Shown here one piece after another: positions 47,540 to 56,634 of a DNA stretch of 64,000 bases. Each line of letters opens with the position of its first letter. The first letter of the stretch is position 1. Source of the stretch: Thermoanaerobaculaceae bacterium (lineage in GTDB: Bacteria > Acidobacteriota > Thermoanaerobaculia > Multivoradales > UBA5704); the NCBI GenBank assembly GCA_963712665.1, contig CAVQIV010000010.1, forward strand, positions 135,291-199,290, read 5' to 3'. A model generated the notes under the pieces. That model did no database searches. It had not been told where the DNA came from and saw nothing but the letters and a program-made list of their open reading frames with translations. Position numbers and translations under genes: made by a program.

Positions 47540-49051
47540 CTAGTTGACATCCCCCCGGTCCCGTCCCCCTGAACCCCGCCGCGGCTTCAGGAGCTGGAAC
47601 TTGACCATCTCCTTGTAGCTGATCTGGCTGTCCAGGTCGGCCCGGGCGAGCTTCAGGTGCTGGTGCAGGCCTTCGAGGACCATCTCGGCGGCCAGAGCCC
47701 GTTCCTCACGGGTGGAGCCGAGGCGCACGACCAGATCCCGGAGGCCGGGGACGCGGAAGATCTCCTCCTCGTAGTCGGCGAACGGCTGCTCGTCGGAGAT
47801 CGTCACCGTGTTGCCATCCGCGAACCAGCGGATCATGCGGGCGTAGGGTCCCTTGTCGTCCTCGCCGCCGCTGCCGGTCTCCTTGCCTACCTCGGGGAAG
47901 CGGGCGTCGAAGGCCTTGCGGACGGCCTGGCCGATGAGCTTCCGGGCCACCACTTCGGCACCCTGCTGCTCGCCCTCGTAGACCATCTCCACCTTGCCGG
48001 TGATGGCGGGCAGCAGCATGTGCAGGTCGGCGAGGCGCGGATAGACGGGGCTGTCCTTGGTGGCCAGGGCCCGGCGCTCGAGGTTCGAGGCCAGGAGCTC
48101 CAGGGCCGAAATGGCCACGCGGGCTGAGACGCCGGAGGACTGGTCCACCAGGTCGCTCGCGCGGGCCGCCAGGCTGATCTCCTCGACTAAGAGACGGACG
48201 TCCTCGGGGATCACGACGCTCGCCACGTCGCGCTCCGTCCACGCCTCCTGGCGGGTGATGTCGGCCGCGATGGTGGCGTCCGGCGGGTAGTGGGTGAGGA
48301 TCTGGGACGAGATGCGGTCCTTGAGCGGCGTGATGATGCTGCCGCGGTTCGTGTAGTCCTCCGGATTGGCGGAGAAGCACATGAGGATGTCGAGCGGGAT
48401 GCGCACGGGGAAGCCGCGGATCTGGAGGTCGCGCTCCTCCAGGATGTTGAACAGGCCCACCTGGATGCGGGGGGCGAGGTCCGGAAGCTCATTGATGGCG
48501 AAGATGCCGCGGTTGGTGCGCGGGATGATGCCGAAGTGGATCACCTCGGGGTCGGCGAAGGTGAGCTTGCGCGTCGCCGCCTTGATGGGATCGATGTCGC
48601 CCAAGAGGTCGGCGATCGAGACATCCGGCGTCGCCAGCTTCTCGTTGTAGCGCTGCTCGGCCGTCATCCACTCGACGGGAGCGTCGTCGCCGGCGTCCGC
48701 GATCAGGCGCTGACCCGGAATGGAGATGGGGGCGAGCGGATCGTCGTTGAGCTCCGAGCCCGCGAGCACCGGCACCTCGGGATCGAGGAGGGTGACGAGC
48801 GAGCGCAGGATGCGGGTCTTCGCCTGGCCGCGCAGGCCGAGCAGGATGAAGTCGTGGCCGGCGAGGAGCGCATTGACCACGGACGGGATCACCGTGCGGT
48901 CGTAGCCGAGGATGCCCGGGAACAGGGGGCCGCCGCTCTTCAGGCGCGAGCGCAGGTTGTCGCGGATCTCCTGCTTGATGGAGCGGGGCCGGTAGCCGGC
49001 CTGCCGGAGCTGGCCTAAGGTCTTGATCTGGGACGTGGGACGGGAAAGCAT
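47540..49051 (-). CDS. AAA+ ATPase (Mg-chelatase subunit-like)
   Basis: GLRGQAKT, INELPDL, SANPEDYTNRG; coupled to the VWA gene. Confidence 0.92.
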   Translation of the reverse strand: MLSRPTSQIKTLGQLRQAGYRPRSIKQEIRDNLRSRLKSGGPLFPGILGYDRTVIPSVVNALLAGHDFILLGLRGQAKTRILRSLVTLLDPEVPVLAGSELNDDPLAPISIPGQRLIADAGDDAPVEWMTAEQRYNEKLATPDVSIADLLGDIDPIKAATRKLTFADPEVIHFGIIPRTNRGIFAINELPDLAPRIQVGLFNILEERDLQIRGFPVRIPLDILMCFSANPEDYTNRGSIITPLKDRISSQILTHYPPDATIAADITRQEAWTERDVASVVIPEDVRLLVEEISLAARASDLVDQSSGVSARVAISALELLASNLERRALATKDSPVYPRLADLHMLLPAITGKVEMVYEGEQQGAEVVARKLIGQAVRKAFDARFPEVGKETGSGGEDDKGPYARMIRWFADGNTVTISDEQPFADYEEEIFRVPGLRDLVVRLGSTREERALAAEMVLEGLHQHLKLARADLDSQISYKEMVKFQLLKPRRGSGGRDRGDVN

Positions 49052-50019
49052 CAGTCGTGAAGCTCCTGGAGCCAGCGCTCGGCGTCGATGGCCGCCTGGC
49101 AGCCGGTGCCGGCGGAGGTGACCGCCTGGCGGTAGATGGGATCCATGGCATCGCCCGCGGCAAAGACGCCGTGGACGCTGGTCTTGGTCGTCGGTTCCTG
49201 GACTTTGATGTAGCCCACGTCGTTCATCTCCAGCTTGCCCTTGAAGATGGCGGTGTTGGGCTGGTGGCCGATGGCGTAGAAGACGCCCTGGGTGGGATAG
49301 AGGCTGTCGAGCTCCGTGCGCTTGTTGTGCAGCTTGGCGCCGGTGACGCCGCCTTCGCGGGTGCCGACGATCTCGGTGACGACGGAGTCCCAGATCCAGG
49401 CGATCTTGGGATTGGCGAAGGCGCGGTCCTGCATGATCTTCGAGGCGCGCAGCTCGCGCCGGCGGTGGATGACGGTCACCTTGCTGGCGAACTTGGTCAG
49501 GTAGGTGGCCTCCTCCATGGCCGAGTCGCCGCCGCCGATGACCACGATCTCCTTGTCGCGGAAGAAGAAGCCGTCGCAGGTGGCGCAGGCCGAGACGCCG
49601 TAGCCCATGAGCTCCTGCTCGCCGGGGGTGTTGTCGAGCTTGGCGGTGGCGCCGGTGGCGACGATCAGGGCGTCGCACCGGTAGGTGGCCTCGTCGGTGC
49701 GGATGGTGAACGGCCGCTTCTCGAAATCCACCTCGACGGCCTGCTCGAACTTGACCTTGGTGCCGAAGCGCCGGGCCTGCTCGCGCATGCGGTCCATGAG
49801 CTCGGGCCCCAAGATACCCTCGGGGAACCCGGGGAAGTTCTCGACGTCGGTGGTGATGGTGAGCTGCCCGCCGGGCTGGTTGCCCTCTAACACCAGGGGC
49901 GCCAGGTCAGCCCGGGCGGCATAGAGCGCGGCCGTGAGACCGGCCGGCCCCGAGCCCAGGATGATGACCCGGTGGTAGTTGTCGGCGTTGTGATGCTCCG
50001 TCGCTGAGGTAGCTGACAT
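49051..50019 (-). CDS. trxB: Thioredoxin reductase
   Basis: GSGPAG, GGQL, CATCDG, GGGDSAMEEA, FAAGD, YRQAVTSAG. Confidence 0.97.
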   Translation of the reverse strand: MSATSATEHHNADNYHRVIILGSGPAGLTAALYAARADLAPLVLEGNQPGGQLTITTDVENFPGFPEGILGPELMDRMREQARRFGTKVKFEQAVEVDFEKRPFTIRTDEATYRCDALIVATGATAKLDNTPGEQELMGYGVSACATCDGFFFRDKEIVVIGGGDSAMEEATYLTKFASKVTVIHRRRELRASKIMQDRAFANPKIAWIWDSVVTEIVGTREGGVTGAKLHNKRTELDSLYPTQGVFYAIGHQPNTAIFKGKLEMNDVGYIKVQEPTTKTSVHGVFAAGDAMDPIYRQAVTSAGTGCQAAIDAERWLQELHD

Positions 50020-50181
50020 TCGGGGCGGTCCCCTCTCCTGAAAAGGTCTGGAAATCACCTGCGGAGCGGCAGCCAGGTGAGCCCCGGCAGTATATCGCGG
50101 CCTTGGGCTCCCCCACGCCGCACACGGCGGCGTAAGGAGTACAACGTAGTGGGCGGGAGGGGGCATTCCGGGGGGGAACGC

Positions 50182-50748
50182 TCATGCGCAGGCGTTCAGC
50201 CCGGGCACCGCCTCCTCCAGCATCTCCCGCATCGCCTTGAGCCCCAGGCGGATGCGCGATTTGAGCGTGCCGAGCGGCAAAGCGAGCCGGCTGGCTGCTT
50301 CCTCGTAGGTCAAGCCCTGGAAGTAGGCCATCTCGATGGCCCGGCGTTGATCGGGGTTGACGCGGGTGAGGGCCTGGCGAAGGGTGATGCGCAGGTCGCG
50401 GGATTCCCTGTCCGGCTGCGGCAGGCGCTGGTCGTTCAGCTCCTCGGACTCGCGGTTGCGGTCCGAGCGGCGCCAGAGGTCCACGAGCTTGTTGCGGGTC
50501 AGGGTGTAGAGCCAGGCGGCCACGGCGCCGCGGTCCGGCCGGTAGGTGGCGGCTTTGCGCCAGACGGTGGTGAAGACCTCCTGGGCCACGTCCTCGGCCA
50601 AGCAGCGGTCGCCGCACAGGCGGTGGGCGTAGGCGATCACCGCGCCGGCGTGGCGCAGGTAGAAATCATGGAAGGAATCGAGATCTCCGAGGGCGGTGGC
50701 CGCCAGCAGGTCTTCGTCGGGCTCGGGGGTGATGTGATGATCGTTCAC
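50182..50748 (-). CDS. ECF sigma factor (second)
   Basis: GGAGGAGG RBS; AEDVAQEVF, WLYTLTRNKLVD, GTLKSRIRLGL. Confidence 0.92.
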   Translation of the reverse strand: MNDHHITPEPDEDLLAATALGDLDSFHDFYLRHAGAVIAYAHRLCGDRCLAEDVAQEVFTTVWRKAATYRPDRGAVAAWLYTLTRNKLVDLWRRSDRNRESEELNDQRLPQPDRESRDLRITLRQALTRVNPDQRRAIEMAYFQGLTYEEAASRLALPLGTLKSRIRLGLKAMREMLEEAVPGLNACA

Positions 50749-50775
50749 GCATCCTCCTCCATCAGATCGGAAGGG

Positions 50776-50807
50776 GTAGATCCGGCCGAGGGGAGGATGG
50801 GTTAGCG
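50776..50807 (-). promoter_or_regulatory. Putative ECF promoter CGCTAACCC-N15-GGATCTAC upstream of the second sigma
   Basis: Identical boxes and spacing to 51038-51069. Confidence 0.7.
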
Positions 50808-50831
50808 ATCGGTGGCGGCCCCTGAAACGAG

Positions 50832-50862
50832 CCGGCCCGGCCGCAGGGAGCAGCCGGGCCGG
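50832..50862 (-). terminator. GC hairpin after the small peptide gene
   Basis: CCGGCCCGGC/GCCGGGCCGG inverted repeat. Confidence 0.5.
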
Positions 50863-50885
50863 AGGGTGCGAGACCGACGAAGAGC

Positions 50886-50996
50886 CTACTTCTCGGTCGG
50901 CGGGGGCGGACCGGTCCAGGGTGGATTCCGGGTGTCGACTGGACCGTCCTGGAACGACTTGAGGTCGAGCTCGGGGTACTGGGTGCGGGGATTCAT
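50886..50996 (-). CDS. 36-aa peptide MNPRTQYPELDLKSFQDGPVDTRNPPWTGPPPPTEK
   Basis: Strong AAGGAGGA RBS, own promoter motif, downstream hairpin, ATGA overlap with the CHAT stop. Confidence 0.7.
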   Translation of the reverse strand: MNPRTQYPELDLKSFQDGPVDTRNPPWTGPPPPTEK

Positions 50997-53980
50997 CGTG
51001 TCCTCCTTGATAGACCGCGGGGTACGGGTTCTTGATCGTAGATCCCGTTGACGCGGATCGGGGTTAGCGGTTGGCCGGCTCGCCAGTCTCCTTGCAGGAT
51101 GAAGCCTGCCCAATAGTATGGCGCTTCCCGCCCCGGTTGGCGGCGCAGGCCGTCCTGGGCGGCGCGCAGGGCGGCCGCGGGCTGGCCGTGCTCCAGCATC
51201 TCGCGATAGAAGCGCTGCATCAGCTCGGCCGTGGCCTCGTCGTCCACCTCCCAGAGGCTCACCAGCACGGCGCGGGCGCCGGCGTACTGGAAGCCGCGAG
51301 TGAGCCCCACCAGACCCTCGCCGCGGATCTCCTGGCCCAGAGCCGTGCTGCACGCCGAGAGGACCACGAGGTCGGCGGCCCAGCGCAGGCCATAGATCTC
51401 GTGGGCCCACACGAAGCCGTCCTCACTCCGCGGCCTGCCGTGCTCGTCCACTTGGGAAAAGATGAGCTTCGACAGCTCCGGATGCTCGGTGTCGATCTCG
51501 CCGTGGGTGGCGAGATGGACGATGCGGTAGCCCGCGAGCTTGCCGCTCAGCACCACCTCGCGGCTGGCCGCGAAGCCGAGGGCGGCGAGCCGCTGGTCCT
51601 GGGGCACCAGATCCTGCAGGGCTTCCGCCTCCTTGCTGGAGTAGGAAAGGCGTTGGAAGCTGTCCGTGTTGAACACCGGATCAGCCACCACCGCCAGGGT
51701 TCCGGGGGCGCTCCTGCGGCCGGCGAGCTCGCGGCGGGCCACGGCCAGGGCGGAGGCGGAGGGGGAGATCACGACCTCATGCGCGGCCACGAGCGGCTCG
51801 GACGAGCCTGGAATGGGGAGCGCCGCGAAGGGGAGATAGAAGAGGGCGCCGTCCGGCACGATCAGCAGGCGCTTGCGTCCGAGGAGCCCCGCGACCGGCT
51901 GCAGGAGGAGATGGGAGAGCTCGTCCTGAGAATCCGCGGCCGGGATCCGCGCCAGAGACCGATGGCTGCGCTCCAGCCGCTGGTAGCCGCGCCGGGCCGC
52001 CTCCTCGATCGTTGCGCGCCCCGGCAGCGGGAAGACGGCGAGATGGTCCGGCGTGACGGCCCAGACGAAGCTCCTCTCTTTTCCCAGATGGTATTCGAGG
52101 AGCAGGGTGTCGGCGTCCAGGATCTGGCGCTGGATCTCCGGCACGCTCGAGGGACGTCCTTGAGTGAGGGCGGCATAGGCGGGGCTCGCCTGCCGCAGCT
52201 CGGTCTGGGCCCGCTCGGAATTCGCGAGCGCCTGGCGCAGCGTCCGTTCGGCGGCCGCTTGCTGCTCGCTGGACGCCCTCGCGTTCTGGAGCCTCCAGCG
52301 CGCGCGATCGGCCTCGTTGACCTGGCGGTCGGCCTCATCCACCCGGGCGAGGAGAGTGGGATCGACGCCGCGCCGCAGGTCGGTCCTGGATTCCGCCAGC
52401 AGGTCGAGCAGACCGCGCGCCCGTGCCCTCTCGCTGGCTGTCAGGGCCTCGTCGACGCGGTGCATCGCTACCAGCAGGTCCACTTCAAAAGCGTAGAGCT
52501 CCTGGTTGCGGACCTGGAACGCGGTGCGGATCTCGTGGCTGGCTGAGGTGCCGCGCAGCGACTCGGCCTGTACGATGCCTGCCTGGATGGCCTCCCGAGC
52601 GCCGGCGAGGTCGCCGAGTCTTCTCCGGGCGCGAGCCAGGCCGAGCCGGGCAAAGGCCGCGGTGGCACGATCGCCAAGAGCCGAGAGACGCGGCAGCACC
52701 TGCCCATAGACCTCGATGGCCTCCTTGGGACGGTCCGCCGCGACGTCGGCCCAGGCCACGTTGGCGAGGGCCACGGCCTCGTCGGGCCCATCCCTCAGGT
52801 CATGGAACAAGGTGCGGGCCTGGGCGAAATACAGCCCCGCCTGTCGCCAGTCGCCGAGCAGGATGTAGACGCAGCCGAGATCGTTGAGCGTCACCGCCTG
52901 GCTGCGGCGATCCCCGAGATGCTGCTCGAGGGCGAGGGCCTGCTGGAGGTTTTCGATCCCCTTCGGGATCTGCCCTGCCCGGCTGTAGGCGTTGCCCATG
53001 GAGTTCAGGGCTCGCGCCTGTTCCTTCTCGTTGTTTTCCGCCCTGAAGAAGTCGAGAGCGAGTTGGAGCTCATCCAGCCCCTTCTGCGGCTCACCGAGGG
53101 ACTGATAGAGGTCCCCGAGGCTGGAGCGGGTGATCGCCTCCTGTCTCCGGTTTCCCACCGCGCGCCAGAGGTCTTGGGACTGCTGGAAGTGAGCGATAGC
53201 CTTGCCGTTCTCCCCCAGCGCCCGGTAGGCCATGCCAAGGTTCGCGAGGGTCGTAGCCTCGGTCGATCGCTCGCCCAGGCGCTGGCTCAGGGCGAGAGCC
53301 TCGCGGTAGGACACCATGGCCTGGCGGACCTGGCCCTGGAACTTGTAGATCACGCCGAGGAGGTTCAGCGTGTACCCCGCTTCGTGCTCCCAGCCGAGGG
53401 CGCGGAAGAGGGCCAGGGCTTCCTTCGCCCGGTCGGGATCGGAGCCGATCTTGGCCAGAGAGTAGAGGGTCGCGGCCTCTCGCCCGCGCTCGCCCGCAGC
53501 GCGAAAACCGGACAGGGCCTGGCGGTAGGCCGCTGAGGTGAAGAGACGCTCGGCGGCAACCCGGGCGCGGTCGCGGGGTTGGGCGGGGCGCAATGCCGCC
53601 AGCCGCACCTCGTATTTTCCCGCGGGCTCCAGGGAGCCGGAGGGCCGGACCTCCAGCCGATACCGCCCGGATCGCTCCGCGATCACCGGCACCGGCTCGG
53701 CGCCCCAGGCGCCGAAGAAGCTGTCGGAGGTGGCGAGCGGGCGGCCGTCCGGATCCTTCACGGTCACGGCGACATCGATCCCACGCTGATCCACGGCGAG
53801 GTCGGCGAAGGTGCCCGCGGGGAGGTCCAGGAGATAGTCGTAGGTGGCGAGGGTGGACTCGACAACGGCGCCGGCTCGGGGCGGGAGAACCCGTGACGGG
53901 ACAGCCGGCGGCGCCGGCTTCTGGCCGTGGACGGCGAGCAGGGCGCACAGGGCGAGCCCGACGGCTGGATGGGCCCTCAT
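50993..53980 (-). CDS. Exported TPR-CHAT (caspase-like) protease
   Basis: Hydrophobic N-terminus, PPC-like beta domain, TPR array, IVPDGAL, VHLATHG (His), VVLSACST (Cys), SLWEVDD, YYWAGF. Confidence 0.93.
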   Translation of the reverse strand: MRAHPAVGLALCALLAVHGQKPAPPAVPSRVLPPRAGAVVESTLATYDYLLDLPAGTFADLAVDQRGIDVAVTVKDPDGRPLATSDSFFGAWGAEPVPVIAERSGRYRLEVRPSGSLEPAGKYEVRLAALRPAQPRDRARVAAERLFTSAAYRQALSGFRAAGERGREAATLYSLAKIGSDPDRAKEALALFRALGWEHEAGYTLNLLGVIYKFQGQVRQAMVSYREALALSQRLGERSTEATTLANLGMAYRALGENGKAIAHFQQSQDLWRAVGNRRQEAITRSSLGDLYQSLGEPQKGLDELQLALDFFRAENNEKEQARALNSMGNAYSRAGQIPKGIENLQQALALEQHLGDRRSQAVTLNDLGCVYILLGDWRQAGLYFAQARTLFHDLRDGPDEAVALANVAWADVAADRPKEAIEVYGQVLPRLSALGDRATAAFARLGLARARRRLGDLAGAREAIQAGIVQAESLRGTSASHEIRTAFQVRNQELYAFEVDLLVAMHRVDEALTASERARARGLLDLLAESRTDLRRGVDPTLLARVDEADRQVNEADRARWRLQNARASSEQQAAAERTLRQALANSERAQTELRQASPAYAALTQGRPSSVPEIQRQILDADTLLLEYHLGKERSFVWAVTPDHLAVFPLPGRATIEEAARRGYQRLERSHRSLARIPAADSQDELSHLLLQPVAGLLGRKRLLIVPDGALFYLPFAALPIPGSSEPLVAAHEVVISPSASALAVARRELAGRRSAPGTLAVVADPVFNTDSFQRLSYSSKEAEALQDLVPQDQRLAALGFAASREVVLSGKLAGYRIVHLATHGEIDTEHPELSKLIFSQVDEHGRPRSEDGFVWAHEIYGLRWAADLVVLSACSTALGQEIRGEGLVGLTRGFQYAGARAVLVSLWEVDDEATAELMQRFYREMLEHGQPAAALRAAQDGLRRQPGREAPYYWAGFILQGDWRAGQPLTPIRVNGIYDQEPVPRGLSRRTR
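51038..51069 (-). promoter_or_regulatory. Putative ECF promoter CGCTAACCC-N15-GGATCTAC upstream of the peptide
   Basis: Identical boxes and spacing to 50776-50807. Confidence 0.7.
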
Positions 53981-54068
53981 GGGTGAATCATTCTCCTCGC
54001 TGGGCTTGAGTCTCCATCCAATACTACGTGGGCGCGAGGGATTCGGGATGAAGGGTCCTGCGAAGTCG

Positions 54069-54824
54069 TCAGGGCTTCTGCCGGGGCGCCTCGATGGGCA
54101 ACCGATACTCCGCGATCGGTTTTTCGGACGCGCCCTGGCCCGTGTTGCCGAAGAGGAGGAGACGGTAATCCCCCGGTCCGAGCTCATCCCGCGACAGCTC
54201 CAGGGTCACGCCGTCAAGCTTCTCCTTGAATACCAGCCCTTGAACCTCCAGGACCTTGCCGCCGTCCTTACGGACGATCTCCGCTCGATATTGAGTGGCT
54301 CTGGCCGGCGGCCCGGGGAGATACAGGACGAGGATGAGACGCCGGGAATCATCCGCGGAGATCCCTTCGCCGAGGGATCCCCTCCCACCCCGGGTCGTGG
54401 AAGGGGAGAGCTGGATCACGGACGGATTGGCCTGCGGCTGGGAGAGCTCGCTGACGGTGCGTTGAAGCGAAGCCACCCAGGCCGAGAGGCCCACCGTAGC
54501 GACCAGCAGGGCGGCGGCCAGGGCCTGGAGCCAGCGTGGCGATCTCGAAGATCGGGAGGGCCGGCGCAGGGGCACGACGGGGGCCGGGGGCTTCTCCTGC
54601 GTCTCCTGATGGATCTCTCCCTGGATGCGCCCCCACAGCGCCTCCTGATCCGCCGGGGAGAGCGAGCCGGCGCCGAAGCCGGGATCGGCCAGGCCTGCGA
54701 GATCGAGGAGCAGGTCGGAGCATTCCCGGCAGGAGAGGAGGTGATCCTGGAGACGCTGCTCCTCGTCCGCGGTCAGCTCGCCTGCGTGGTAGGCGGCCAG
54801 GGTTTCGGGCTCCGGATGGCTCAT
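54069..54824 (-). CDS. zf-HC2 zinc-binding anti-sigma factor with TM helix and extracytoplasmic domain
   Basis: HPEPETL...HLLSCREC; TM WLQALAAALLVATVGLSAWV; ATGA overlap with sigma. Confidence 0.9.
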   Translation of the reverse strand: MSHPEPETLAAYHAGELTADEEQRLQDHLLSCRECSDLLLDLAGLADPGFGAGSLSPADQEALWGRIQGEIHQETQEKPPAPVVPLRRPSRSSRSPRWLQALAAALLVATVGLSAWVASLQRTVSELSQPQANPSVIQLSPSTTRGGRGSLGEGISADDSRRLILVLYLPGPPARATQYRAEIVRKDGGKVLEVQGLVFKEKLDGVTLELSRDELGPGDYRLLLFGNTGQGASEKPIAEYRLPIEAPRQKP

Positions 54825-55447
54825 GGCGCCTCCTCGATCCCGGAGATCAGGTCCTGGAAGTAGGGGCCCAGCTCCTCGCGCAGCCGCCGCCGGCCTTGAG
54901 CCAGGTGGACCTTGACCGTCTCCGGCGACAGCCGCAGCAGCACGGCGATCTCCTTGTAGCGGAGCTCCCGGTCGATCCTCAGGACCAGGCACTTCCGCAT
55001 CTGCTCCGGCAGCTTGTCGATGGCCTGACGCAGGAGGCGCGAGCGCTCCTTGCTCAGCATCTCCTCGCTCGCCGTGGGCACGTCCGTTGCCGCCAGGGTC
55101 GCCATCGGTCCCAAGTCCTCCTGATCTCCCTCCAGGGCCACTTCCGTCGCTCCCCGCTTCTCGGCCGTGCCCCAGCGCAGCCGCTTGCGGTAGGCGTTGG
55201 TGGCGATCTTGAACAGCCAGGTCTCGAAGCTCGCGTCGCGGCGGAACGCTTCGATGCCCCTATAGATCCCGATGAAAGTCTCCTGGGTTAGGTCGAGGCA
55301 ATCCTGGTGCGGGAAGCCTCGCCGGGAGAAGAAATGGTAGAGCCGGGGAGAGTAGAGGTCGAAGAGGCGACGGAAGGCCGCGTCGCGCAAGGATCGCGTC
55401 GGGCCGGTCTGGAGCTGCTCGATGAGGTTCTGGATGGGCTCCGCCAT
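54821..55447 (-). CDS. ECF sigma factor (first)
   Basis: DLTQETF, FETWLFKIATN, YKEIAVLL, TVKVHL. Confidence 0.92.
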   Translation of the reverse strand: MAEPIQNLIEQLQTGPTRSLRDAAFRRLFDLYSPRLYHFFSRRGFPHQDCLDLTQETFIGIYRGIEAFRRDASFETWLFKIATNAYRKRLRWGTAEKRGATEVALEGDQEDLGPMATLAATDVPTASEEMLSKERSRLLRQAIDKLPEQMRKCLVLRIDRELRYKEIAVLLRLSPETVKVHLAQGRRRLREELGPYFQDLISGIEEAP

Positions 55448-55454
55448 CGCCGTC

Positions 55455-56634
55455 TCAAGGTATGCCCGTAGGATACCCCATCCCACCCGCTCGAGGCCCG
55501 CCATAGCTCACGGAATGTCCCCAGGCGATGAGCGGTCTCTCGAAGAGCCGCCACGAGACCTCGGCCAGGGCGAGGGTCGCCGCGACCGCCGCCGCCGTGA
55601 TCGCCATTTCGGCGGGGGTGCCGAAGCCGGGAGGGCGGCCCAGGATTAGGCCGTGGGCCAGGCCGTTGACCGTCTGGTGGAGGAGATAGACGCAGTAGGC
55701 CCGGCCGCCGAGCCACCGCAGCCAGCGGTGGCGGACGAGCCAGGTCACCGGTCCTCTGGGCTCGGTGACGGCGAGGAGCAGCAGCGAGCCGTAGAGCACG
55801 GCGAGGACGGAGAACATGAACGGGCTGCCCTCGAACCCGTAGTGCCGGAAGAGGCAGAGGCCCCCGAGCCCGGCGAGGAAGACGGCGAGGATGCCATAGA
55901 GCAGAGGCCGCGAGCCCTGGATGGCCCGCCGCCAGCGCTCCTGCCGCAGGGCCCAGGCGCAGAGCACGCCCAGCAGCAGGGAGTCGGCCCGGCAGTGGGT
56001 GAGGACGATGGTGTCGAAGTACCCCGCGGGACCGGCGAGGACCCGCCACAGGGGCGCGGCGAGGCCCACGGCCGCGAGCGTGGCCGGCAGCCAGCCGGTC
56101 GGGATGAAGCGGATCAGGAGGGGCAACGCGAGGTAGAACTGCTCCTCGACGGCCAGCGACCAGGTGATGGCGAGGCCGATGGCGACCGAAGGAGCTCTCG
56201 TGCGCCATCACCAGGTTCTGGGTGAACGTGGCATAGGACCAGACCGGCAGCGGATCGCGGAAGATCGGCGCCAGGACCGGGGAGGCCGTGAAGGCCGGGA
56301 CCGCGGCCCGCAGCAGGAAGAACGCGCCCAGGAAGAGGAAGTAGAGCGGCAGGATGCGGCAGAAGCGGCGGGCGTAGAAGGCCTGGAAGTAGCGGGGAGC
56401 CGTGCGCCGGTCGAGCAGGATGCCGCCGATCAGGAAGCCCGAGAGCACGAAGAAGAGATCCACGCCGCTCCAGGCGAGACGCAGCGACCGCCAGGTGAGC
56501 TGGGCTAGGGGAGCGGGCAGGGTCTGGAGCGGCATGGCCACGTAGTGCCAGGCGAGGACCAGCAGGATGGCCAGTCCCCGGATGCCGTCCAGCTCCGGAA
56601 TGCGTCCGGAGGCTTCCTCGTTCGAGTGTGACAA
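55455..56634 (-). CDS. Acyltransferase 3 (OafA-like); frameshift near 56180
   Basis: [34 protein letters not shown]; second frame [11 protein letters not shown]...YLLH...SWRLFERP. Confidence 0.88.

Follow-up and report, generated by a model that had tools for sequence, protein, structure and literature searches.

The window analysed here is a stretch of 64,000 nucleotides from a metagenome-assembled genome of a Thermoanaerobaculaceae bacterium (class Thermoanaerobaculia, phylum Acidobacteriota; contig CAVQIV010000010.1 of assembly GCA_963712665.1). It carries a cluster of genes for two extracytoplasmic function (ECF) sigma factors (herein referred to as sigma1 and sigma2), an anti-sigma factor, a TPR-CHAT protein and a short proline-rich peptide, among which copies of a bipartite, promoter-like DNA motif are found. 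An earlier note on this DNA had proposed that the motif is an ECF-type promoter recognized by one of the two sigma factors, either by sigma1 in a cascade or by sigma2 in autoregulation. All of the genes lie on the minus strand, and the features of the locus are, in the order of transcription:

54821-55450, minus strand: gene for sigma1, an ECF sigma factor (Pfam Sigma70_r2 and Sigma70_r4_2)
55262-55293, minus strand: motif copy inside the sigma1 reading frame, encoding D-LTQETFIGIY of sigma region 2
54069-54827, minus strand: gene for the anti-sigma factor (Pfam zf-HC2, 5.8e-06, and NCBIfam 'antisigma')
50993-53980, minus strand: gene for the TPR-CHAT protein (Pfam CHAT, 1.2e-69, and TPR families)
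51038-51069, minus strand: promoter-like site 2, CGCTAACCC-N15-GGATCTAC, 41 nt upstream of the peptide ATG (50996)
50886-50996, minus strand: gene for a 36-amino acid peptide (MNPRTQYPELDLKSFQDGPVDTRNPPWTGPPPPTEK), with an AAGGAGG Shine-Dalgarno box and an ATG at 50996
50825-50862, minus strand: GC-rich hairpin followed by a short run of U, lying past the peptide gene and ahead of the predicted sigma2 promoter
50776-50807, minus strand: promoter-like site 1, CGCTAACCC-N15-GGATCTAC, 27 nt upstream of the sigma2 GTG (50748)
50182-50748, minus strand: gene for sigma2, an ECF sigma factor (Pfam and NCBIfam), with a GTG start at 50748
49051-50019, minus strand: thioredoxin-reductase-like gene downstream of sigma2 (Pfam Pyr_redox_2)

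Read from the ATG at 55450, sigma1 is a protein of 209 amino acids (its open reading frame (ORF) stays open to 55504), and its closest relatives of solved structure are SigW and Escherichia coli sigma-E. The anti-sigma factor combines its zf-HC2 domain with a single hydrophobic span and a C-terminal domain of ~110 amino acids. It is encoded separately from the TPR-CHAT protein, whose ORF is open up to 54187 and whose likely start is MRAHPAVGLALCALL, an N-terminus that, as judged from the sequence, resembles a signal peptide. The closest solved relatives of sigma2 are 2q1z (R. sphaeroides RpoE with its partner ChrR, 5e-24) and SigK (6e-19), and its score of 133 bits against the NCBIfam SigK subfamily model falls under the cut-off of 226 of that model. 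No anti-sigma gene adjoins sigma2 and no ORF lies between it and the reductase gene; by these sequence criteria, sigma2 is RpoE(ChrR)/SigK-like and an orphan among ECF sigma factors. Both sigma2 and the peptide gene have a Shine-Dalgarno box. The hairpin at 50825-50862 is a predicted intrinsic terminator that would separate the peptide gene from the sigma2 promoter: the segment 50805-50890, which covers it, folds at -47.4 kcal/mol (z = -3.2), and the hairpin was absent from the output of a simple terminator scan.

The claim that an identical 32-nt bipartite motif with identical spacing occurs in two places is borne out by exactly two exact minus-strand matches, and the distances to the start codons, put at ~30-40 nt in the earlier note, measure 27 nt for sigma2 and 41 nt for the peptide when counted from the 3' end of the motif. 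The flanks and spacers of the two sites are otherwise unrelated (ATCCTCCCCTCGGCC at 50776-50807 and CGATCCGCGTCAACG at 51038-51069). An origin of both sites by chance is ruled out by shuffles of the window and by controls across the whole genome (8.79 Mb, 67% G+C). In 100 dinucleotide shuffles of the window, scored at up to 3 mismatches, the motif was matched a mean of 0.15 times. The genome scan that had been suggested as a check yields five matches to TAACCC-N15-GGATCT, compared with 0-1 matches at each of the other spacings from 12 to 19 and 0-2 matches per spacing for the reversed control. The 14-base core, CTAACCC-N15-GGATCTA, has five exact copies in the genome and none in the reversed control, and seven matches vs none when one mismatch is allowed. 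We also considered the two sites as the remnant of a duplicated sigma1 fragment, an idea rejected because their spacers are unrelated.

Conservation of the motif extends well beyond this genome. In an order-wide sample of 201 genomes, the core was found in 81 at up to one mismatch (a tally that counts the unpublished genome G145, on which no other result rests), and its matches are often paired on one strand, 4.3-5.9 kb apart. We retrieved 14 such paired-match loci and mapped the proteins of the window onto them; together with the window, ten loci belong to the same genus (herein, congener loci). All ten congener loci encode CHAT and sigma2 and carry the motif upstream of sigma2, eight reach as far as sigma1, and nine have the reductase gene downstream of sigma2, the tenth stopping at a contig edge. 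The core before sigma2 is exact in 8/10 loci and differs by one mismatch in the other two, with differing spacers, and the sigma2 start codon lies 24-30 nt past the 32-mer in nine loci. In the remaining locus (L044, genome G142), the ATG is just 7 nt past the -10 box, and the mRNA may be leaderless.

Between CHAT and sigma2, every congener locus has a small ORF (27-58 amino acids); the N-termini of these ORFs differ and a C-terminal NP(P)W.(G/D)PPPP is common to nine, that of L042 being divergent. Six of the congener peptide ORFs are preceded by (A/G)TAAACCTT-N11-GGATCTAC, that is TAAACC-N14-GGATCTA, with a spacing one base shorter; elsewhere, L049 has CCAAACC ... GGATCTG, L044 retains the first box only (the -10 is lost) and L041 has none. 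A hairpin and T-run lie between the peptide gene and the predicted sigma2 promoter in congeners as well, and this pattern, with a box pair for each gene, fits two separate transcription units, each with a promoter of its own. The peptide site at 51038-51069 falls in the final codons of the CHAT ORF as read in this genome: here and at least in L049, the ORF extends for ~27 codons (50993-51075) over the predicted peptide promoter, its end overlapping the peptide ATG, unlike in most congeners, where it stops after ...ILQGDWR.

The earlier note had held the motif to be absent upstream of both sigma1 and CHAT. For sigma1 this stands, as a search of the 260 nt upstream with up to 4 mismatches in the 12 boxed bases returned only 4-mismatch matches; for CHAT it does not, since the copy at 55262-55293, inside the sigma1 ORF, precedes the anti-sigma gene by ~430 nt and so precedes CHAT as well. 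This in-gene copy has 3 mismatches over the 17 bases of the motif and an exact 14-base core at 55263-55291. Three of the five exact core copies in the genome fall within coding regions: one is in sigma1 (on C10) and the others are in its paralogues on contigs C13 and C26, both sigma1-like. In all three sigma genes, the boxes encode D-LTQ..F..IY of region 2.

The codons with which these residues are written are unusual. Among 1556 long ORFs of this genome, CTA and TTA account for 0.9% and 0.3% of Leu codons, ATT for 5% of Ile codons and TAT for 24% of Tyr codons. We compared 34 codon columns with a conserved residue across 41 CHAT-linked sigma genes and found the Leu column of the motif to be by far the strongest outlier (CTA 26, TTA 2, CTC 11, CTG 2); in the other seven conserved Leu columns, CTA and TTA are never among the four commonest codons. 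The Thr of the motif is ACC in 40/41 genes, compared with ACC 23 and ACG 18 in another conserved Thr column, and its Ile is ATT in 20 and ATC in 19, compared with ATC in 40/41 in another conserved Ile column. Synonymous sites of the in-gene spacer vary freely, and homologous sigma genes of other phyla use ordinary Leu codons at the motif Leu. A codon-blind search of the order-wide sample with the protein pattern D-L-T-Q-x-x-F-x-x-I-Y returned 91 matches in 55/201 genomes, of which 55 matches, counted by eye, have CTA or TTA for Leu. In an unrelated ECF family that shares the peptide (DLTQE[IV]FLRIY), Leu was seen, also by eye, to be CTC, CTG or TTG, together with CGC-ATC, and the box pair to be missing, and another subset of the matches reads CTC-ACC ... 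GGG-ATT-TAC. As far as codon usage can tell, the in-gene copy is under nucleotide-level selection within sigma1-type genes. A promoter is the simplest function for such a copy, one that would raise the anti-sigma factor and CHAT and not sigma1, and we put the probability that it works as a promoter close to, though not above, an even chance.

The latter subset of codon-blind matches provided a second, differently spelled set of sites. Twenty loci of the CTC-ACC ... GGG-ATT-TAC subset, mixed forms included, were retrieved, the codon-blind pattern being the sole route to this ATT-type set; in 17 of them the sigma gene is followed by a CHAT gene, and three end too early to show whether it is. These 17 are paralogous clusters of the sigma1/anti-sigma/CHAT kind. 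We scored 32 clusters for co-variation of their boxes, 16 with an in-gene ATC, 14 with an in-gene ATT and two with GTC, leaving out duplicates (L057, L058, L059 and L064) and loci without a full CHAT match; there was no in-gene match in L048 and L049 (contig edges) or in L159 and L063 (regular-expression misfit). Twelve of the 16 in-gene ATC clusters have an ATC-type pair within 2 kb past CHAT, L052 has one at +2107, and none has an ATT-type pair. Conversely, an ATT-type pair, (C/T/A)GCACCC-N15-GGGATT, lies from -9 to +68 nt of the CHAT end in 12 of the 14 in-gene ATT clusters, and none has an ATC-type pair. Near the CHAT end there are 1.35-1.6 sites per kb vs 0.06-0.11 elsewhere (in-gene sites included), with a cross-type count of 0. 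The second position of the -10 box is also matched in L052 (GCATC/GCATC, where its sister L051 has GGATC/GGATC) and in L159 and L166 (GCATT/GCATT), and L053 has GCATC/GTATC.

Across the order, as these comparisons indicate, sigma/anti-sigma/TPR-CHAT clusters carry one box pair in the sigma gene and another just past CHAT, and the paired boxes change together between sigma subfamilies (GGATC, GGATT, GCATC, GCATT). Independent weight for this co-variation comes from the ATT set, from L061 and from the GC variants. In a maximum-likelihood tree of 41 sigma proteins, the ATC type falls in at least three clades interleaved with the ATT type, on a weakly supported backbone. Region 2.4 sets the two subfamilies consistently apart, and the helix of region 4.2 is similar in both; a change in region 2.4 alongside a similar region 4.2 fits an altered -10 and a similar -35, a correspondence that is only suggestive.

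The post-CHAT pair of the ATT type mostly precedes a gene for a protein of ~810 amino acids (L147:1583-4045, minus strand, L149, L150, L152, L156, L157 and L163) with, in this order, a conserved N-terminus (M..R.LHITI.EG), 3-6 tandem proline-rich, DPGDNYVMPPPG-like repeats, 3-5 consecutive Cys and a subtilase domain of the S8 family (Peptidase_S8). The peptide motif NP(P)W.(G/D)PPPP of the congener loci resembles one DPGDNYVMPPPG repeat unit of these subtilases, which occupy the same position in the paralogous clusters. CHAT or the subtilases could have the small post-CHAT peptides as their substrates or ligands.

We consider it likely that the motif sites are promoters of sigma1, which would drive the peptide and the orphan sigma2 as a cascade. 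The first reason to favor a cascade is that the motif trails sigma1/anti-sigma/CHAT clusters that have no sigma2: in five loci of other families (L050-L054), the box pair lies downstream of such a cluster with no sigma2 there, preceding a gene for an outer-membrane beta-barrel protein in L050 (with homologous ORFs in L051 and L052), an 80-amino acid ORF in L053 and an unclear target in L054. The second is that the boxes covary with the sigma1 subfamily, and the third is that the relatives of sigma2 carry a different upstream motif, TCATCCA-N17-CGTAGG. The alternative of autoregulation, in which sigma2 reads the motif and drives itself and the peptide while the in-gene copies raise the anti-sigma factors of sigma1-like systems, draws on the fact that ECF sigma factors often autoregulate and on the position of the motif, immediately upstream of sigma2 in 10/10 congeners; a single reader of the identical in-gene boxes of three paralogues would also avoid their cross-talk. 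Nevertheless, the best sigma2-like genes in the genomes of L050-L054 (42-50% identity to sigma2; 36% in G066) lack the motif in 5/5 loci at a limit of 4 mismatches of 14, and the box variants follow the subfamily of the cluster's own sigma. An orphan with positive feedback and no inhibitor would, moreover, have no off-switch.

The relatives of sigma2 also argue against autoregulation. The nearest relative of sigma2 in this genome (C9:120760-121400, minus strand; 59% identity) has a ChrR-like anti-sigma gene (zf-HC2 and Cupin_7) directly downstream, and neither this paralogue nor its orthologues in G083 and G076 have the CGCTAACCC/GGATCTAC motif. Instead, TCATCC(A/G)-N16-18-CGTAG lies upstream of five of seven sigma2-like genes, the C9 paralogue and the G083 and G076 orthologues included (the loci concerned are L179, on C9, and L167, L168, L138 and L139). 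CATCC-N16-18-CGTAGG occurs 13 times genome-wide vs 8 for the reversed control, a count that alone is not significant, and only the placement upstream of sigma2-like genes makes it informative; on that placement, the sigma2 family probably has TCATCC(A/G)-N16-18-CGTAG as its promoter type. Nothing like it was found near sigma2 or the reductase gene, and since sigma2 has neither this motif nearby nor an adjoining anti-sigma, both its anti-sigma and the promoter of its family seem to have been lost, leaving it an orphan. Autoregulation by sigma2 is hence unlikely in our view, and we assign it a low probability.

A different reader within the same family must also be weighed: the sites may be ECF promoters read by another sigma1-like paralogue, that of the C26 or the C13 cluster, or by several interchangeably. 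The sigma genes on C10, C13 and C26 have the same in-gene boxes, and weaker sites on C13 lie upstream of a 373-amino acid protein and of two Peptidase_C25-like paralogues. The sites under study, however, sit in the C10 cluster, and their arrangement is kept with a C10-type sigma1 in the 8/10 loci that reach sigma1; C26, furthermore, has a post-CHAT pair of its own, TAAACC-N14-GGATCTG, which differs slightly and thus suggests some insulation between clusters. We give a reading by paralogues a fairly low probability. Of the C13 sites, those at 627353-627384 (minus strand) and 241544-241575 (plus strand) have 3 mismatches of 17, each before a paralogue of ~470 amino acids with a Peptidase_C25-like C-terminal part, and a 2-mismatch site at 280619-280650 precedes the 373-amino acid protein, which has no Pfam family. 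The congener G157 was also recorded with an almost identical box pair (C42:38279). The C26 pair occurs twice past CHAT (1170144 and 1170580, plus strand; L180), before ORFs of 89 and ~156 amino acids without a Pfam family.

That the sites are promoters at all is suggested by their architecture. As in ECF promoters, two short boxes lie at a set distance (15, with a variant of 14) around a free spacer and in a single orientation, and every site, in the window and in congeners, occupies the coding strand at a distance of 24-41 nt from a start codon, with the one exception at 7 nt. AAC is present in the -35, as TAAC or TAAAC in ATC-type sites; in ATT-type sites, the corresponding bases are CACCC. 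SigW and E. coli sigma-E use promoters of the type AAC ... TCT/CGT. The boxes might instead bind a regulator other than a sigma factor, or the in-gene copy might be kept for a non-transcriptional reason, such as slow translation at rare codons: promoter activity is a prediction from sequence comparison, the -10 box has no CGT, and the in-gene copy is built of rare codons. Such an explanation has to contend with the directionality of the sites, their placement near start codons, the set box distance and the free spacer, and the cluster holds no conserved gene for a candidate regulator. Rare-codon pausing, in turn, leaves the joint change of in-gene and intergenic boxes unexplained; the in-gene bases track the intergenic boxes, which a DNA site read by the same factor can explain. 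We regard these non-sigma explanations as very improbable and the motif as almost certainly functional. The proposal of the earlier note is hence retained in part: directionality, a near-fixed distance to the start codon and conservation argue for an ECF-type promoter, and of its two candidate readers we favor sigma1 in a cascade over sigma2 in autoregulation.

Several observations weigh against this assignment to sigma1. The -10 box is GGATCTA and has no CGT; a CGT -10 is frequent, though not universal, among ECF promoters, and E. coli sigma-E promoters also have a TCT-type -10. Five of the 30 ATC and ATT clusters have no post-CHAT site at all, the -10 boxes of two clusters are mismatched (L161, GCATT/GGATT; L054, GGGTC/GGATC), and co-variation of the -35 is imperfect, L163 having TAACCC in the gene and GCACCC past CHAT. 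The ATC set was partly found by DNA pattern (the window and L041-L054), and its concordance is therefore partly by construction. Genomes without a sigma1 orthologue (G076, G083, G090, G097 and G067) are, at the thresholds used, also without a sigma2 orthologue; sigma1 and sigma2 have been gained or lost together in the genus, and presence and absence cannot separate the two readers. As the in-gene boxes of C10, C13 and C26 are identical, sequence cannot tell which of these sigmas reads the sites in the window, and cross-talk is possible. Finally, the spacer of the predicted sigma2 promoter starts with ATCC (CTAACCCATCC...) in 8/10 congener loci, beside the -35 box, which recalls the CATCC box of the sigma2-family motif and might either extend the -35 box or act as a second, overlapping determinant.

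We hypothesize that TAA(C/A)CC-N14/15-GGATCTA acts as the -35 and -10 for RNA polymerase with sigma1, whose partners would be the zf-HC2 transmembrane anti-sigma factor and the exported, protease-like TPR-CHAT protein. We infer this promoter identity, and sigma1 as its reader, from the sequence, conservation, codon anomaly and co-variation that are observed. Transcription of the sigma1 operon itself would start from a promoter of the housekeeping type with a very short leader, as suggested by a -10-like element (TG-n-TATCCT or TATGAT), read by eye and common to congeners, 20-35 nt ahead of the sigma1 ATG (55451-55490). A scan of 49900-55800 with a sigma-70 consensus returned 0 sites. A search of 49500-56000 against Rfam at permissive thresholds returned only a sub-threshold L25-leader match at 55940-55980 (24.4 bits vs a gathering score of 34.1), which we take as chance.

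Cleavage by, or by way of, CHAT would probably free sigma1 from its anti-sigma, upon which transcription would start at three places. From just past CHAT, a short transcript for the proline-rich peptide would end at the hairpin terminator; from 262 bp further, a second transcript would cover sigma2 and perhaps the thioredoxin-reductase gene; and from inside the sigma1 coding region, a third would carry the anti-sigma and CHAT. As this internal transcript is unable to encode sigma1, active sigma1 would raise its inhibitor and partner and not itself. Sigma2, which has neither an anti-sigma nor the motif of its family, would be controlled by transcription alone, and sigma1 to sigma2 would constitute a two-step sigma cascade. 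Taken as a whole, the picture is of a sigma factor with its own target promoter written, in rare codons, into its region 2, transcribing its anti-sigma and TPR-CHAT partner and not itself, co-evolving with a post-CHAT promoter, repeated across paralogous clusters of Thermoanaerobaculia and, here, including an orphan sigma of another group in its output as a cascade; we advance it tentatively, as having slightly less than an even chance of being correct in full.

The closest characterized system is DdvS/DdvA of Myxococcus xanthus, in which the ECF sigma is paired with a membrane-spanning anti-sigma that also bears a periplasmic TPR-CHAT domain, and release is proposed to go through caspase-like cleavage and then intramembrane proteolysis (PMC11506125, PMC6061681), with several GTAA-N16-CGT sigma-dependent promoters within one locus (PMC6061681). 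Both systems combine an ECF sigma, a zinc-binding anti-sigma domain (here the zf-HC2), one membrane span, a TPR-CHAT outside the cytoplasm and several sigma-dependent promoters per locus, those here being predicted. They differ in that anti-sigma and TPR-CHAT form one polypeptide there and are separate genes here, and in that the promoters are GTAA-N16-CGT there and TAACCC-N15-GGATCTA here. DdvS autoregulates from a promoter upstream of ddvS, whereas sigma1 has none upstream and a putative one inside; the outputs are CBASS (cyclic oligonucleotide-based antiphage signaling system) and CRISPR genes there and would be a peptide and a second sigma here. No DdvS-like chain was found among the solved relatives of sigma1 at E <= 1e-5. 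Craspase systems likewise tie a TPR-CHAT protease to an ECF sigma.

ECF54 of Actinobacteria is described as having TPR-CHAT proteins and subtilases encoded nearby, as lacking an anti-sigma and as having GTATCAG ... CTCC for its predicted promoter (PMC7826278 supplement). The TPR-CHAT neighbour is shared with the present cluster, and the paralogous ATT-type clusters place an S8 subtilase after the post-CHAT promoter; an anti-sigma, however, is present here, the boxes differ, and the organism is an acidobacterial one. Transcription of one ECF sigma gene by another, as proposed here, is described for Sphingopyxis, in which EcfG2 drives EcfG1 (PMC8103513), with the difference that those are same-group paralogues sharing a regulon and the present pair joins a SigW/sigma-E-like factor with an RpoE-ChrR/SigK-like one that has no anti-sigma. 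A sigma-E-type promoter embedded in an ORF has a parallel in E. coli micL, whose RpoE-dependent promoter is described as lying within the cutC ORF (PMC8103513); the host gene there is unrelated to the sigma, whereas here it is the sigma's own ORF, upstream of its anti-sigma. A limited literature search, which is not proof of absence, found no described promoter inside a sigma's own ORF ahead of its anti-sigma.

These results provide a testable predicted promoter for an uncharacterized ECF family of uncultured Acidobacteriota and hence a route to its regulon, which is predicted to include the peptide and the second sigma here and, in relatives, subtilases with tandem proline-rich repeats or outer-membrane proteins. 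If TCATCC...CGTAG is the promoter of the sigma2 family, sigma2 could turn on that regulon without ChrR. The link between ECF sigma factors and TPR-CHAT proteases, known from DdvS/DdvA, now takes in a split arrangement found widely within a single class. If the in-gene promoter works, it would be a clear case of regulatory DNA constraining synonymous codons in a regulator's own gene, and the resulting feedback, with the inhibitor raised and the sigma unchanged, would depart from the positive autoregulation that ECF operons usually show. Natural sets of sigma factors and promoters that vary in step (GGATC, GGATT, GCATC and GCATT) could, in addition, help to assign sigma residues to bases of the -10.

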